A DNA stretch of 64,000 nt from an uncultured Acidobacteriota bacterium (GTDB lineage: Bacteria; Acidobacteriota; Vicinamibacteria; Vicinamibacterales; UBA2999): the NCBI GenBank assembly GCA_963814955.1, contig CAWFEX010000011.1, positions 192,796 to 256,795 of the forward strand. Reading direction: 5' to 3'. The translations under genes and the position numbers were made by a program. The notes beneath the pieces were generated by a model that saw nothing but the letters and a program-made list of their open reading frames with translations, ran no database searches and was not told the DNA's origin. Shown piece by piece: positions 55,602-60,126 of the stretch (within the stretch, counting starts at the first letter, position 1; every line of letters begins with the position of its first letter).

Positions 55602-55678
55602 CGGGGCGTGGCTCAGCCTGGTAGAGCACTCGGTTCGGGACCGAGGGGTCGGAGGTTCAAATCCTCTCGCCCCGACCA
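55602..55678 (+). tRNA. tRNA-Pro (anticodon CGG)
   Basis: 77 nt. Acceptor CGGGGCG/CGCCCCG, D arm GCTC-AGCCTGGTA-GAGC, anticodon arm CTCGG-TTCGGGA-CCGAG, T loop TTCAAAT, encoded CCA. Confidence 0.9.
55630..55678 (+). repeat. attL-like direct repeat (3' 49 nt of tRNA-Pro(CGG))
   Basis: tcggttcgggaccgaggggtcggaggttcaaatcctctcgccccgacca is identical to 60078-60126. Confidence 0.85.
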
Positions 55679-56038
55679 AATTTCCTCATTTTCCTCAGAG
55701 AATCCGCAGAACTTAGTCTGGCGGGTCACTCGGTTTTCACTTCCAATTCGAGGGTCGAGAACCGAGTGTCCGGTGCTTCAAATCAGGCCTTCCTCCAAAA
55801 TCCTTCGAGATTTCTCGCTTCCGTCGCTCGCGACTGGTCCATCCCACGGACTCTGCGAAGCAAAGCGCTACCCTCCACGCTACCCTGACAATCGAGATCC
55901 GGCACGATTCGCGATCTGACTAATCAGTTGATCGTGTTGTCGCGACGATGCCATCCGGGGCCGGATCCAAGCCGAGTTTCGCGGCGCGGGAAGGACCTGC
56001 TGGGCACATCCGACGGCGCCGGATGTGGCTGGAGACTG

Positions 56039-59000
56039 TTAGCCGCTGGCCACCTTCGCCTGCCGGAAGAAATCCGCGGGCATTGGTCTTTGCAATTTCC
56101 ACACGAAGCTGATTGGCCGGTCGCCCTTGTGCGAGACGTAGTCTGCGGGGCCGATGAACGTGTAGGGCATCGTGCGCCCGTCCTGCTTCTTTCGTGGACG
56201 CACGAAGAGCAGGATATGGCCGCCACGGTTCCGGTGATGAATGTAGCGCTGCCCGGTCTTCGAACGCTGCGTGGTGGTTGACTGCGATTCCCAATGGAAC
56301 AGAGTGGGCGAAATCGCATAGTCCTTGTAGAGCGTGGATGGCGAATATTCGCGCTCTGATTTTTCAAGCGTCACAAAGAACAGGTCGGAGTTCGTCTGCT
56401 CGTCACGAATCACCCCGGTCTGCTTCCAGGCGGTCTTATTGAAATCCAGCATCCCGAATGCTGTGAGGACATCGTCCACCGTGTGGCGCGCGTGCACGGA
56501 CAGGGGCACGCGGAGGGGCGATCCAGTGGGCCGGGCGAGGTCCAGCGGATAGGTGAGATGCTCTGACCGCTCGTCCAGGAGGGGAATCAGCTCGCGCAGT
56601 TCCTCGCACGATCGCCGGATGCGCGTGAAGGAGCGCGACCGACTCGGCGAGTGTCTTGGGTGCGATCTTCGATGGGATCGCGGCGAAATGAAAGCCGGTC
56701 ACGAGGCGACGATCGGCGTCAGTCCGTTGGATCACGGATGCCGATGCCGCTAGGCGTTCATAGGCCTCGAGCCGAAGCGGATCGTCCACGTGGAGTAGTC
56801 CGGCCAGGCGATCACCGATGAGCGTTTCATATGGCCCTGGAGCGGGCACCTCCAGGCGCGCGTCACGTTGCAGGCCCGACCAACTGCCGGAACGGTACAC
56901 GTCCTCCAACTCCAGGCCCGCCTCCTGAAGGAATTCGGGAAGCGTGATACGACGCCCGGACGCCGAACGAGCGCCGGCGAGCGCCATCAATTCCCTCACC
57001 ATCGCAGGACGACGCGAGGGAATGGCGCTCTTCAGGTTGCCGAGGACGATCTGCGTCGCGACGCGATCCAGCTGCATCGAGCAGCCCGCAGGCAGGAACG
57101 GAAAACCCAGTTGCACCTGCTTCTCGACTTCGGTTCGCGTCGTCCCTGTGACGGCGCGATAGCGAAGGTCGAAGCGGAACTGCCGATGCGACTGGCCGAT
57201 GAAGTCCAGGACCGTCACGCAATCTTTTCTCTCATGGCGCCGCAGCCCGCGGCCGAGCTGCTGGAGAAACACGAGCGCGCTTTCCGTCGGCCGAAGAAAG
57301 AGCAGCGTATCGACCTCCGGGAGATCGACCCCCTCGTTGAACAGGTCTACCGCGAAGAGTACCCGCACCCGACCCGCGCGCAACGAGGCCAGAGCGGCCT
57401 TTCGCGTCTCGCTGTCGGTGTTCGCTGACACGGCGACTGACGGTAGACCGACCTCCGTGAACCGCCGTGCCATGAACTCCGCGTGCGCAATACTCACGCA
57501 AAATCCCAGCGCGCGCATCGTCCCCGCATCGCGGTGCTTCTGCCGCACCTGCTCCAGTACCAATCTCACCCGCGCATCGTCTCCGGTGTACAGGCGCTCG
57601 AGTTCCGCCGTGTCATAGCCTTTGCGAGACCACCGAACCGATGACAAGTCGGTGTTGTCATGCAGCCCGAAATATTGGAACGGGCAGAGCAACCCGCGCT
57701 CGAGCGCATCCCAGAGCCGCACTTCCACCGCGATGTGATTGTCGAAGTAGTGAAGGATGTCTTCGGCGTCGGTGCGTTCGGGCGTGGCGGTCAGCCCCAG
57801 GAGGATTCTGGGCGGCTGTCGAGCCGAGTCGGCCTTTGCGCCGCCGAAGAGATGTTCGAGCAGCCGCCGATACGTCGGCGCCGCCGCATGATGGAACTCG
57901 TCGACAATCACGACGTCGAATGCGGCCGGATCGAGCTGCGCCAAATCGACCTGCGCCAGGGACTGAATGGAAGCAAATACGTGCCGCCACTCGTCGGGCC
58001 GATGGCCGTCCACGTAGAGCTCGCCGAAGTCTCCCGATCGCAGGACTTGGCGGAACGCGCCGACGCTCTGCCTCAGGATTTCTTGTCGATGGGCCACAAA
58101 CAGCAGACGGAGATCTCCGTGCTGATCGCGCAGGCGCTTGTAGTCGAGCGCGGCGACGATGGTCTTGCCGGTTCCCGTCGCGGCCACGACAAGATTCTTG
58201 AAGCGGTGATGCCGTTCGCGCTCCACGGCGAGCTTCTCGAGCATCTCGCGCTGGTGGGGCCACGGTTCGACATCCAGGAACAGAAGCGGCGCCTCGAGAA
58301 AGTCGCCTTGCTCCGGCGCGACCGCGCGATCGAATCGCGCGGCATCCCGGGCCGGTTCATAGGATTCGTATTCGGGACTCTCCCAGTACGTTTCGAACGT
58401 GGCATCGAACTTCTCAAGGATGTCCGGCGAGCCCACCTGCGATAGGCGCACGTTCCACTCCACGCCGTCCACGAGGGCTGACTTCGAGAGATTTGACGAG
58501 CCGATGTAGGCGGTGGAGTAGCCACTGGCGCGGCGGAAGAGCCACGCTTTCGCATGAAGGCGCGTGGACTGCGTGTCGTACGAGACCTTGACCTGCGCGC
58601 CGCGCGCCACCAGCCAATCGAGCGCTTTCCGTTCCGTGGATCCGGTAAACACGGTGGTGATCACACGGAGTGGCCTGCCCGCTCGGCACAGCGCCTCGAG
58701 CGGATCGGCCAACAGCCGCAGCCCATGCCATCGCACGAAAGCGCACAGCAAGTCGATGGAATCGGCGGACGGGATCTCGTGGGCGAGCGCGTGGGCGAGG
58801 CCAGGCTCCCCGCGTGCATTCACCAGGAGGTCTGACGCGGACAGCGCGACTAGCGGGGCGATGACGTTCCAATCCTCGTTCGGCAATCTGGCGATCCGCT
58901 GAATCGCACGCAGTTGTTCAGGCGGGCTTTGGACCAAATCATCGTTGGGCCGACCGTCAGCTGGATTGGCGGCAAGCGAACTGATGATCTTGTTCGTCAG

Positions 59001-59225
59001 ATCCGATTGCGCAGCGGCCCGGTCTTCTTGAGGGAGAGCGTCCAGTGCACGGGCCACCACGGTTGCGATGTGCCGAGCCAAGATGGCATGTGTCTCGGCT
59101 GCGTCGATCTCCTCAGTGACGATGTGGGCGGTGGCGGAATCGAAGCGGAGAAGCCGCGCCTTCAGGCCGGCCGTGACGAGGCGCTCGTAGAGCCCGAAAG
59201 GGAGGTCATCGTCGTCGGTGGACAT
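56039..59225 (-). CDS. SauUSI-like PLD nuclease / SF2 helicase / DUF3427 protein (putative type IV modification-dependent restriction enzyme), one frameshift
   Basis: PLD HKD motif HAKAWLF...GSSNLS, helicase motifs AATGTGKT, DEFHHAAA, TATPER and a QQLGRGLR-type motif VI. The C-terminal DUF3427-like module (ORF 56039-56509: LFFVTLEKSEREYSPSTLYKDYAISPTLFHWESQS...LLFVR) joins after an extra base near 56615. Confidence 0.75.
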
Positions 59226-59330
59226 CGGGAAACGCGGGCAAGGTTACTCGAGGGCGACCCGCCCGAACAATGATCGTCGGGCTCGAACCCGAGCGCTGGA
59301 CTGCTGGCGGCATGCCGCACACGTTGATCG

Positions 59331-59630
59331 TTAGATCCGCGGACCGCGTTCGCGACGCGCGCCCCAGAGGGCGCGAACGATCACTCGTGTGTCATCGAAC
59401 GTGTAATAGAGATGGACGGCGACTCTCCTGAGGTAGACGCGGCGAACGCCGGGAACGGGCGATTGAGCGTAGAGCGTTCCGGCACCCGGAAGCACCGCGA
59501 TGATCTGGAGCGCCTGTTCGAGTTCCTCGGTAAACACGTCCGGGTGGTCGCGGTTGGCCAACCACCAGGCTTTCTCTCGCCGAACGTGTTCTTGCGCAGT
59601 GGCTGTGAAGCGAACGCGGCGATTCTTCAA
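59331..59630 (-). CDS. RelE/ParE family toxin
   Basis: 99 aa with a ParE-like pattern (A..HV...KAWW...R, P.AG, R.Y..R...HLYY). Its TTG start overlaps the antitoxin stop (TTGA). Confidence 0.7.
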   Translation of the reverse strand: MKNRRVRFTATAQEHVRREKAWWLANRDHPDVFTEELEQALQIIAVLPGAGTLYAQSPVPGVRRVYLRRVAVHLYYTFDDTRVIVRALWGARRERGPRI

Positions 59631-59851
59631 CGCGATCGAAGTTGGCGAAGGATCACGTCCGCGTCGACGAGACGACCGGCCTTGATGTCTTCGTCGGAAT
59701 CTTTCAGAGCCTGATGGAGCGCGGCTCGATCTTCCTCATCGAGCCAGTCTCCGGGATCGAGCGGCAGGAGCTCGATTTCGGTTCCTTCGGGCAGATCGGT
59801 GGGCTCATCGACGACAAGTCGCCCGGCCTTCACTCGAGCCTTCAGCGTCAT
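59627..59851 (-). CDS. Antitoxin partner of the ParE-like toxin
   Basis: 74-aa acidic protein (MTLKARVKAGRLVVDEP...EEDRAALHQALKDSDEDIKAGRLVDAD) immediately upstream of the toxin and overlapping it. Confidence 0.6.
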   Translation of the reverse strand: MTLKARVKAGRLVVDEPTDLPEGTEIELLPLDPGDWLDEEDRAALHQALKDSDEDIKAGRLVDADVILRQLRSR

Positions 59852-60077
59852 GCGATCACAGTAGCACCGCGACCGTTGCTCCACAACTCAGGAGACGCGC
59901 GAGCTGGAAGCGGCCGCGATGGGCGAGATCCGGACGAACCGTCGCGAGCATCGACCGCGCCGGAAATTGGCGGCCGTGTTCGGCGAATGCGGGAGCTGGC
60001 CGCGGCCGAACCGCTACCCGGTGACTACCCGAGTGCGAGAATCTGCGAAATCGTTCGAAAACTCGACGCGGCAACGA

Positions 60078-60126
60078 TCGGTTCGGGACCGAGGGGTCGG
60101 AGGTTCAAATCCTCTCGCCCCGACCA
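60078..60126 (+). repeat. attR-like direct repeat (copy of the tRNA-Pro(CGG) 3' 49 nt)
   Basis: Identical to 55630-55678. It lacks the tRNA 5' half, so it is not a functional tRNA. Confidence 0.85.

Follow-up and report, generated by a model that had tools for sequence, protein, structure and literature searches.

How does a single restriction gene come to lie in a minimal island at a tRNA gene when the island encodes no recombinase, and can such an island still move? The question is posed by a 4.4-kb islet in the tRNA-Pro(CGG) gene of an uncultured soil bacterium of the Vicinamibacterales (Acidobacteriota), found within the 64,000-nt stretch of contig CAWFEX010000011.1 (assembly GCA_963814955.1, positions 192,796 to 256,795) that is called here, at its full length, the window. 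The islet was inserted into tRNA-Pro(CGG) by site-specific recombination of the tyrosine-integrase type. Its conserved ends, its replacement between the same boundaries in a close relative and a circular sibling suggest that it is probably a hitcher, similar to the cis-mobilizable elements (CIMEs), which carries a defence gene and depends for its mobility on an integrase supplied in trans. The features on which this reading is based are listed in Table 1.

Boundaries and layout of the islet

ARAGORN located two tRNA genes within the window, tRNA-Pro(CGG) among them. The last 49 nt of this gene recur as a direct repeat at the far end of the islet; the two copies match at 49 of 49 positions, identity ends immediately on either side, and the 49-mer has 2 copies in the 64-kb window. 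A search with a 25-nt core, allowing up to three mismatches, hit the two repeat sites only, and 100 shuffles gave 0 matches. The tRNA gene is intact, its 3' 49 nt being contributed by the islet-proximal repeat. A preliminary description, made from the letters alone, had taken this arrangement for the signature of integration at a tRNA 3' end, with coordinates that proved right to within a few bases, and the exact repetition of a tRNA 3' segment together with an intact tRNA at one end places the islet among the tRNA-integrated islands. The identity block found here begins in the anticodon stem and ends with the tRNA. Such a block is reportedly expected where crossover by the integrase takes place within the anticodon loop, a class of tRNA site said to have been described by Williams in 2002.

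Table 1. Features of the islet and its immediate flanks (window coordinates).
Feature	Position	Strand	Basis or remark
tRNA-Pro(CGG), intact	55602..55678	+	ARAGORN; Rfam RF00005, 64.5 bits
Core repeat 1 (attL core)	55630..55678	+	tRNA positions 29-77, anticodon stem to CCA
Left att arm, non-coding	55679..56038	+	57.5% GC; conservation and composition
Left-arm pair GCTACCC-N5-GCTACCC	55867..55885	+	candidate integrase arm-type site
SauUSI-family Type IV restriction endonuclease gene	56039..59225	-	1061 codons without the extra G; Pfam, PDB, PADLOC
Single-base insertion breaking the enzyme frame	56606	+	extra G, absent from L088
ParE/RelE-like toxin gene, 99 aa	59331..59630	-	Pfam ParE_toxin below cut-off; JGI names
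Putative antitoxin gene, 74 aa from conserved ATG	59627..59851 (ORF open from 59884)	-	position, overlap, co-conservation
Non-coding spacer and right att arm	59885..60077	+	presumed TA promoter region; last ~65 bp conserved
Right-arm pair GCTACCC-N4-ACTACCC	60013..60030	+	11-bp period, 48 bp before core; right-end alignment, motif scan
Core repeat 2 (attR core)	60078..60126	+	read as displaced original tRNA 3' end
Terminator-like hairpin, 12-bp stem then GCGTTTTCTG	60157..60184	+	31 nt after repeat 2
HTH_17 (excisionase/MerR-type) gene	60221..60454	+	Pfam 35.6 bits; NCBIfam 'excise' below cut-off
IS110-family transposase gene (DEDD_Tnp_IS110 and Transposase_20)	60764..62056	-	~300 bp after HTH_17

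The repeats enclose 4399 bp, in which 360 bp without a credible gene are followed by a large minus-strand gene, a pair of small overlapping open reading frames (ORFs) and 193 bp of non-coding DNA. The first 360 bp had been described as AT-richer non-coding sequence, which is borne out by their GC content relative to that of the window (63.2%). The whole islet, at 62.8% GC, is about equal to the window, and an argument for foreign origin from composition was dropped. An Rfam scan of the islet recovered the tRNA alone, and a promoter scan found no promoter. No recombinase was detected between the repeats by ORF inspection, Pfam or similarity search, as the preliminary description had already stated, and int, xis, relaxase and type IV secretion system (T4SS) genes are likewise absent from the islet. 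It encodes no integrase of its own and keeps both attL and attR without integration or transfer genes, as in the definition of CIMEs and other hitchers (PMC6323972).

Arm motifs, site occupancy and mobility

Next to each core lies a stretch of DNA that is conserved among related loci (designated below by L and a number). On the left, about 200 bp beside the core are conserved in L008 (two copies), L017, L018, L031, L089 and L129; on the right, an alignment of the window with L007, L031, L018 and element X of L008 delimited about 65 bp before the distal core. Each arm contains a pair of GCTACCC-type heptamers, with a geometry that recurs in the family: N4 spacing at about 48 bp from the core in the right arm, N5-6 spacing at about 190-215 bp from the core in the left arm. 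Among 1.56 Mb of fetched DNA, searched on both strands, 15 GCTACCC pairs were found, 14 of which lie in arms flanking the tRNA-Pro core, always in the orientation of the tRNA. The pair is kept where the remaining arm is 61-74% identical (L129), and also in the otherwise unalignable left arm of L007. A function as operators of the adjacent toxin-antitoxin (TA) genes was considered for these pairs and rejected, as the same pair and core accompany DUF433/DUF5615, PIN-type and Phd-type modules, and a pair is also present in the left arm, beside the cargo. Four copies of CGCTACCC occur in the window, three of them within the two arms; the fourth (28070) was considered as a link between a tRNA-Pro(GGG) island and the islet and was dismissed as chance, the left arms being unalignable beyond the tRNA.

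We infer from this distribution that the paired GCTACCC motifs are candidates for arm-type sites, to which an integrase from outside the islet would bind. A lambda-type attP consists of a core plus arm-type Int sites. The islet is alike in having short motifs repeated in both arms in one orientation, and the full elements L087 and L140, described below, are alike in that int lies directly upstream of the arm; unlike a lambda-type attP, the islet comes without an integrase, and binding to GCTACCC is putative. The pairs provide a testable motif for finding the missing helper integrase.

The left arm also contains an imperfect hairpin (55724-55738 / 55757-55771). A stretch at 55712-55790 resembles a decayed tRNA-Pro, with a D-arm-like CTTAGTCTGGCGGGTC and also TTCAAATC; its stem ACTCGGTT...AACCGAGT is the same as the anticodon stem, but the loop is of about 27 nt. 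This stretch may be what is left of an earlier att site; alternatively, it may represent a secondary core-type site.

Paired repeats of about 11-bp period beside a tRNA-derived core are a layout common to four contigs that encode an integrase. In L087, the one contig of the viral collection with the tRNA-Pro core, a tyrosine integrase gene lies 85 bp upstream of this same core, and the arm repeats, which differ from those of the islet, are GGAACGGATGC pairs on both sides. L089 encodes an integrase 44% identical to that of L087, in an element placed in tandem before a SauUSI islet, with GGTCTTATGCT on the one side examined. In L140 (IMG/VR contig IMGVR_UViG_3300033068_000732, 3059-4550), the gene for a 411-aa integrase ends 13 nt before the first pair, and GCTACCC-N4-GCTACCC, a core from another tRNA and GCTACCC-N5-GCTACCC follow one another. 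Its relative L141 (IMG/VR, 3509-4500), in which the C-terminal part of the integrase is 62-67% identical, has the core of L140 with (G/A)CTCCCC pairs on both sides. Because the paired repeat changes with the integrase, a role as arm-type Int sites is plausible. As they share a core and differ in their arms (GCTACCC vs GCTCCCC/ACTCCCC), L140 and L141 constitute a natural co-variation pair for arm-site recognition.

The integrases of L087, L089 and L140, together with a fragment at 32945 in the window, were used as tblastn queries against the window and all loci. Matches were obtained only in L089, L005/L009 (a tRNA-Ser island), L077 and L134, none of them tied to GCTACCC arms plus a tRNA-Pro(CGG) core. 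The fragment at 32945 had been called a truncated integrase; by eye it does resemble the N-terminus of an integrase, and with no Pfam or NCBIfam match the ORF at 32945-33535 is a plausible but unproven candidate. Neither the complete family members nor the 38 metagenome contigs of the family yielded an integrase, and no related integrative and conjugative element (ICE) or conjugation module was seen among the fetched loci.

The lack of an integrase in every complete unit examined would also be expected if the islet were a stranded remnant, i.e. a once-autonomous element that is immobile after deletion of int and xis, is retained by its TA pair and by selection for its defence gene, and owes the conservation of its arms to recent descent. 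The accepted view derives CIMEs (PMC6323972) and other hitchers (PMC11389934) from elements that lost their integration and transfer genes, decayed copies without a repeat or an arm do exist (L017, L018, L008), and the TA module lies at the distal end in most members. We nevertheless consider a stranded remnant unlikely. Both 49-bp cores are still identical, the GCTACCC pairs persist in diverged and even unalignable arms, and a family with several cargoes and TA modules and no integrase-bearing parent is hard to derive from independent deletions; the occupancy of the site, the relative divergence of islets and flanks, and a circular sibling, described in the following paragraphs, likewise argue against it.

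Two contigs of very close relatives, L128 and L129, were reached through SurE, which is encoded in the left flank and is 96% aa identical between L129 and the window. Over the left flank and the whole of the tRNA, L129 is 100% identical to the window in nucleotide sequence; in the left arm the identity is 61-74%. An unrelated cargo (TOTE) follows, after which identity is 70% in ParE, 78% in the antitoxin gene, 70% in the right arm, 100% in the second core, 97.9% in the next 94 bp and 97.4% in the HTH_17 gene. L128 has the same break at the proximal core; its TOTE islet is degraded, and its right flank differs. The occupancy of the site is thus variable, identity breaking off at the two cores in L129 and, in L128, at the left one. 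In ENA ERZ1758401 (29.6-kb contig; surE at 8319-9077, SurE 89% aa identical), SurE is followed, after 418 bp, by a CarboxypepD_reg/outer-membrane protein (OMP) gene with no islet genes between, and a CarboxypepD_reg/OMP-type gene also lies beyond the distal repeat of L007. The site is thus known occupied by a SauUSI islet, by a TOTE islet or by arrays, and it apparently also occurs empty. The preliminary description had reasoned that mobility would be contradicted if all relatives carried the same fixed 4.4 kb with diverged repeats and no empty site; a near-conspecific strain has instead a different islet between the same cores. As to the empty site that it proposed to look for, in which 55678 would abut 60127, a relative without islet genes at the site was identified at the level of its gene table.

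Replacement of this kind might also arise at a recombination hot spot, where cassettes are swapped by homologous recombination between conserved tRNA/surE and right-flank DNA after transformation or transduction, and where the motifs serve transcription or the binding of a regulator or nucleoid protein. With flanks 97-100% identical between the window and L129, homology is ample; divergence would end at the cores in this case too, as the alleles differ there, and no integrase was found. We regard this explanation as quite improbable, since it leaves unexplained the origin of the duplicated tRNA segment that bounds each islet type, the junctions of the tandem arrays, the 4405-bp single-core circle described next, and the paired-repeat layout that lies beside int in L087, L089, L140 and L141 and changes with the integrase. 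The motif is, moreover, independent of the adjacent TA module or cargo.

L095 (JGI Ga0137415_10041733, 4482 bp) has an exact 77-bp terminal overlap. When closed, it forms a 4405-bp circle that contains a single core and no tRNA; right arm-core-left arm accompany a full TOTE gene and the ParE pair. From attL until shortly short of attR, the integrated islet of L129 has the same order of sequence as this circle. Its sequence makes L095 a candidate for the expected excision product of a sibling islet. The primase and helicase domains of TOTE raise the question whether circles of this type replicate.

Islets also stack. Tandem arrays are present in L008 and L031, and right arm-core-left arm junctions were found in L008, L031, L090, L100, L113 and L127. 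Between genomes the islets are much more alike than the DNA around them: islet DNA is 84-92% identical across genomes overall vs 66-78% for the flanking surE/MFS genes, and the comparison with surE flanks gives 85-92% vs 72-78%. L007 exemplifies this pattern, with an MFS-surE-tRNA flank that is syntenic at 66-74% nt identity and islet DNA at 84%; its second core lies 5.7 kb away, and it has an extra BrnA/SEC-C segment.

The preliminary description had left the choice between mobilisation in trans and a stranded remnant stabilised by its TA pair. Conserved arm motifs, core-bounded replacement and the circular sibling favour the former, and we judge it probable that the islet is a CIME-like hitcher. 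It would retain the halves of an attP-like site, that is, the 49-bp core and two arms with heptamer pairs about one helical turn apart. A cognate integrase acting in trans, whether encoded by a helper element or chromosomally, would excise a circle of about 4.4 kb, which would be reinserted at tRNA-Pro(CGG), and family members with SauUSI cargo, TOTE cargo or other TA modules would then replace each other or stack in tandem. The L089 tandem and the L095 circle are the observations that bear on the proposed helper mobilisation, the cognate integrase not having been found among the loci examined.

Several observations weigh against this interpretation. An integrase combining GCTACCC arms with a tRNA-Pro(CGG) core was not found in the window, in 8 genome loci or in the 38 contigs: where an integrase goes with this core the arm repeats are different, and the GCTACCC-armed one uses another core. 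ERZ1758401 is empty at the gene-table level only, the tRNA and the repeat not being visible there. L095 is a TOTE sibling and not a SauUSI islet, and a perfect tandem duplication could also give its 77-bp overlap; between near-identical strains, homologous recombination in the flanks could have completed the replacement. The islets of L017, L018 and L008 have lost a repeat or an arm or are broken by an insertion sequence (IS), and many copies are decaying. With regard to the cargo, treated in the next section, the restriction gene is frameshifted in the window as written, the ParE-like product falls under the Pfam cut-off, and the antitoxin has no family.

The restriction enzyme and the ParE-like pair

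The large gene encodes what is clearly, by its sequence, a SauUSI-family Type IV modification-dependent restriction enzyme. When its two frames were joined, Pfam recovered four domains, all above the gathering score: PLDc_2 (residues 171-281; 35.8 bits, cut-off 27), ResIII (320-484; 110.9 bits), Helicase_C (569-663; 46.4 bits) and DUF3427 (908-1056; 87.4 bits, cut-off 27.7, profile positions 126-278 of 280). The preliminary description would have been refuted had HMM searches missed the PLD and DUF3427 domains, which they did not. Of the structures solved so far, 7CLG chain A gave the best match (E=1.7e-84). It is the SauUSI crystal structure (PMC7913695), and the preliminary statement that phospholipase D (PLD), helicase and DUF3427 domains make up the architecture of SauUSI was confirmed by this match and by a PADLOC Type IV profile. 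That profile, mREase_IV PDLC03659, matched with E=2.3e-264 (residues 122-1054 vs profile positions 15-937 of 945). A PLD nuclease, a superfamily 2 (SF2) ATPase and a DUF3427/SRA-like domain are thus present in one polypeptide with full-length profile similarity.

Alignment with SauUSI extends to individual motifs. H224-A-K226 and IGSSNLS align with H119-x-K121 and IGSSNLT of SauUSI (HxK motif from PMC7913695), and the helicase motifs GTGKT, DEFH, TATP and QQLGRGLR were aligned to 7CLG, with a second aligned segment at 839-918. F951, V952, D969 and W979 align to F841, I842, D858 and W868, which lie in or beside the 5-methylcytosine (5mC) pocket of the SRA-like recognition domain of SauUSI (PMC7913695); four of the six pocket residues named for SauUSI are identical or conservative, M829 and Y831 lying beyond the aligned stretch. 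By homology, the SRA-like C-terminal domain would recognise DNA containing 5mC or 5-hydroxymethylcytosine (5hmC), the predicted substrate, the helicase core would translocate, and a dimeric PLD nuclease would cut the DNA.

The islet enzyme resembles SauUSI (PMC3141236; 7CLG, PMC7913695) in the order of its parts, with an N-terminal PLD domain (HxK...GSSN), an SF2 DExH-type ATPase, a helical linker and a C-terminal DUF3427/SRA-like domain in one polypeptide, and in having no methyltransferase gene nearby. None was found within the islet and its immediate flanks (surE, tRNA, HTH_17, IS110): the family-supported ORFs between the repeats are the enzyme and the ParE-like gene only, and the partner upstream of the latter is too small for a methyltransferase. 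Unlike SauUSI, the enzyme has R231 in the position of E126 of H(X)K(X)4E, carries about 120 extra N-terminal residues, and comes from a high-GC Acidobacteriota host, its substrate specificity being predicted only. These N-terminal residues (58866-59225), which lie outside every profile match and have no counterpart in SauUSI, are common to all close homologues.

Because the match to the second PADLOC Type IV profile is far better than that to the profile of SauUSI length (E=2e-264 vs E=2e-81), the enzyme belongs to a subfamily different from SauUSI. To call it a distant, uncharacterised member, as was done at first, overstates its novelty. The protein database holds at least 8000 homologues, all below E=1e-20, many of them from Vicinamibacterales and named 'DUF3427 domain-containing protein', and more than 150 orthologues had already been noted in 2011 by Xu et al. 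(PMC3141236). Taken alone, the enzyme adds one more ordinary member to a large family for which profiles already exist.

In the window the reading frame of the enzyme is broken once. The preliminary description had placed a frameshift near 56615; the single break stands, and its exact position is 56606, where an extra G on the plus strand (ATCGTG[C]GAGGAA on the coding strand) is absent from the metagenome contig L088, 98.7% identical over 3.6 kb, which encodes an intact protein of 1061 aa. The intact homologue P0001 is 99% identical. Errors of this kind are frequent in the window: when 44778-55601 was compared with L128, which is 94% identical to the window over 11 kb, 17 frameshifting indels of 1-2 nt (e.g. 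at 54520, 55187 and 55243) were counted in 9.06 kb of ten housekeeping genes, or about 1.9 per kb of coding sequence (CDS). The surE gene has two indels within about 60 nt, and the MFS gene directly upstream has one; repaired by hand, SurE is 96% identical to intact proteins of 252 aa. The window looks like the product of an unpolished long-read assembly, and many related loci come from long-read metagenome-assembled genomes (MAGs). Since the window is riddled with indels and the homologue in L088 is intact, the frameshift is not evidence of decay, and the insertion at 56606 is probably an assembly error. As a practical warning, apparent pseudogenes in the window are unreliable, at about 2 frameshifting indels per kb of CDS. 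An error rate this high might be taken to mean that repeat and insert are themselves the product of mis-assembly of an error-prone long-read MAG; the same architecture recurs in independent short-read contigs (L128, L129, L111) and in MAGs (L007, L031), which makes such an artefact so remote that it can be set aside.

The small ORFs form a probable ParE-type TA module, as proposed initially. The overlap on which the proposed translational coupling is based was confirmed, the antitoxin stop TGA and the toxin start TTG overlapping by 4 nt in TTGA; the family assignment is only probable, as the end-to-end Pfam ParE_toxin match scores 21.5 bits (20.7 for the 75%-identical allele of L129), below the cut-off of 23. 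The ParE-like ORF had no match in NCBIfam, PADLOC or a PDB profile search. Identical copies of the toxin protein were found on two contigs only, of about 0.5 kb each, and for the GDSL-lipase ORF of the window there was no identical entry. Among 668 homologues of the toxin many are named 'plasmid stabilization system protein ParE' by JGI (75-92% identical), and one, 86% identical, has a precomputed PF05016 match. A single-sequence AlphaFold (AF2) model of the toxin was poor (pLDDT 50.6), with two helices followed by four strands, an order compatible with RelE/ParE. No family was found for the antitoxin in Pfam, NCBIfam, PADLOC or PDB. It was always co-inherited with the toxin among the members examined, and the pair is conserved in the window, L007, L008, L017, L018, L031, L128, L129 and at least 12 metagenome contigs. 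L142 and L143, which are error-ridden long-read contigs with no recognisable core, have ParE proteins 95-96% identical. If the predicted TA activity is real, the pair would penalise loss of the islet.

The islet family, its precedents and its neighbourhood

Homologues of the enzyme that are 81-93% identical occur in varied contexts, several of them again at tRNA-Pro(CGG); the nearest homologues on long contigs (P0017, P0019, P0026) have unrelated neighbourhoods, so that the context of the gene varies. MAGs with islets of the family include CAWEDP01, CAVUXJ01, CAVUZL01, CAVTVT01 and CAWIYH01. In L031 two cores bound the islet and the nearest 10 kb contain no tRNA, and in L008 the order is tRNA, a 6.9-kb DabA/DabB segment, core and islet. 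Because the DabA segment of L008 is bounded by the same GCTACCC-paired arms, the arm system also carries non-defence cargo. This segment (13530-20195) encodes DabA, the one member checked with Pfam, and two ORFs of about 488 aa that are presumed DabB-type partners, which points to inorganic-carbon uptake.

With the right-arm pair plus core as the query of a metagenome scan, the right arm and core were found in 38 soil metagenome contigs. Just inside the right arm a TA pair is present in nearly all of them, ParE-like in at least 12 and, in others, of DUF433/DUF5615-like, PIN-type or Phd-type, as judged by eye from translations. In about 13 contigs the cargo is a protein of about 960 aa with AEP-TOTE, helicase and DUF559 domains, a TOTE conflict-system protein as defined in PMC7159879. 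L093 and L117 carry a SauUSI-like gene 98-99% identical to that of the window beside a ParE gene only 75% identical, with different outer flanks. The novel part seems to be the modular family itself, in Acidobacteriota, whose members combine paired-motif arms and a TA module with a single exchangeable defence gene and lack an integrase; the literature searched contained no description of such a modular integrase-less family. The packaging, and not the enzyme alone, deserves attention: in an abundant, little-studied soil phylum, single defence genes lie in minimal integrase-less units with complete recombination signals, and at one tRNA gene these units are seen to have been exchanged, to be stacked or to be missing, one sibling being found as a circle. 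They offer a sequence-defined case of the turnover of defence genes in which each island need not pay for mobility machinery.

A broader view, which we put forward tentatively as a possibility, is that tRNA-Pro(CGG) in Vicinamibacterales serves as the docking site of an integron-like cassette system built from lambda-type parts and run by one unlinked, perhaps chromosomally domesticated tyrosine integrase. Each unit of 4-6 kb would then consist of a complete split attP with paired GCTACCC sites in its arms, a defence gene of SauUSI-like, TOTE or other type and, in most cases, one TA module. The integrase would release cassettes as circles, pass them from strain to strain and build arrays of them, and abundant soil bacteria would possess a set of defence genes that can be reshuffled although none of the cassettes encodes a recombinase. 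In Vibrio superintegrons, TA cassettes stabilise the arrays.

The closest precedents for the islet are the CIMEs (PMC6323972) and the H47 island of Escherichia coli (PMC3191183), and there is a conceptual kinship with integron cassettes, the attC clusters that have no integron integrase (CALINs) and the tycheposon islands. CIMEs of Streptococcus and other hitchers (PMC6323972, PMC5704250, PMC11389934) are alike in their intact attL and attR, in the absence of integration and transfer genes and in tandem placement with an integrase-bearing element at the same site (as in L089). Unlike the islets, they are described as deletion derivatives of ICEs that move in cis after accretion, whereas the islet family has no visible parent ICE, consists of tiny units of 4-6 kb with one defence gene and a TA pair, is modular with conserved arms and swappable cargo, and includes one sibling that appears by itself as a free circle. 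H47 is likewise small and bounded by direct repeats, and its excision and integration proceed by site-specific recombination with trans-acting proteins that it does not itself encode (a 'parasitic strategy'); it differs in its 13-kb size, microcin cargo and long imperfect repeats, and its mobility is experimental, whereas that of the islet is inferred. Integron cassettes and CALINs (PMC11389934) are integrase-less units with their own recombination site that can be stacked and are moved by an integrase encoded elsewhere. The islets differ from them in having a tRNA-derived double-stranded core and lambda-like arms instead of a folded attC, in units of 4-6 kb with their own promoters, and in that no attI or integron integrase lies beside the array. 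In the tycheposons of Prochlorococcus (bioRxiv 10.1101/2020.12.28.424599), successive insertions at one tRNA push older ones outward, partial tRNA repeats form the boundaries, and defence or niche genes are the cargo; unlike the islets, tycheposons are defined by their own tyrosine (or serine) recombinase, integrase-less pieces being described as degenerate remnants.

Comparable islands were noticed at other tRNA genes. In L004 (9712-14286) a 4.5-kb integrase-less islet lies in tRNA-Asn(GTT) between perfect 57-bp repeats, with a SauUSI-like gene (86% aa identical), a Gp49 (HigB-like) toxin gene and its own motif, GTGAACAAT, in both arms; 4.3 kb off, at 5670-5893, is a 224-nt copy (97%) of the 5' end of the SauUSI-like gene and its upstream region. 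In L005 (1-13189), from another Vicinamibacterales MAG, tRNA-Ser(GCT) is flanked within 10 kb by two genes of SauUSI architecture; one of them adjoins HNH_2, and DUF4411/Peptidase_M78, HTH_17 and an integrase-like fragment are also present in this defence-rich tRNA hot spot.

To the right of the islet, the hairpin that follows the second repeat is probably the original tRNA terminator, which belongs to the chromosomal flank and not to the islet. The HTH_17 gene beyond it also lies outside the islet, in the right flank shared with L129 or in an older element next to it, and is absent from L128, and a homologue is present at 31239-31403, in the tRNA-Pro(GGG) island. The right flank could be chromosomal DNA of long standing, or else the remaining stump of a different element that the IS110 copy has cut; it was not proposed as a helper, its repeats being different from GCTACCC. 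The IS110 insertion probably truncated a neighbouring element. In L129 the homologous flank runs instead into sequence resembling 31399-32167 of the window. The tRNA-Pro(GGG) island itself (27729-34000) contains TnpB/OrfB_IS605 (28146-29066), two minus-strand Zn-ribbon-like ORFs (31409-31974) and the ORF at 32945-33535, and the 55 nt that follow its tRNA, hairpin included, are 81% identical to the DNA immediately right of the second repeat of the islet.

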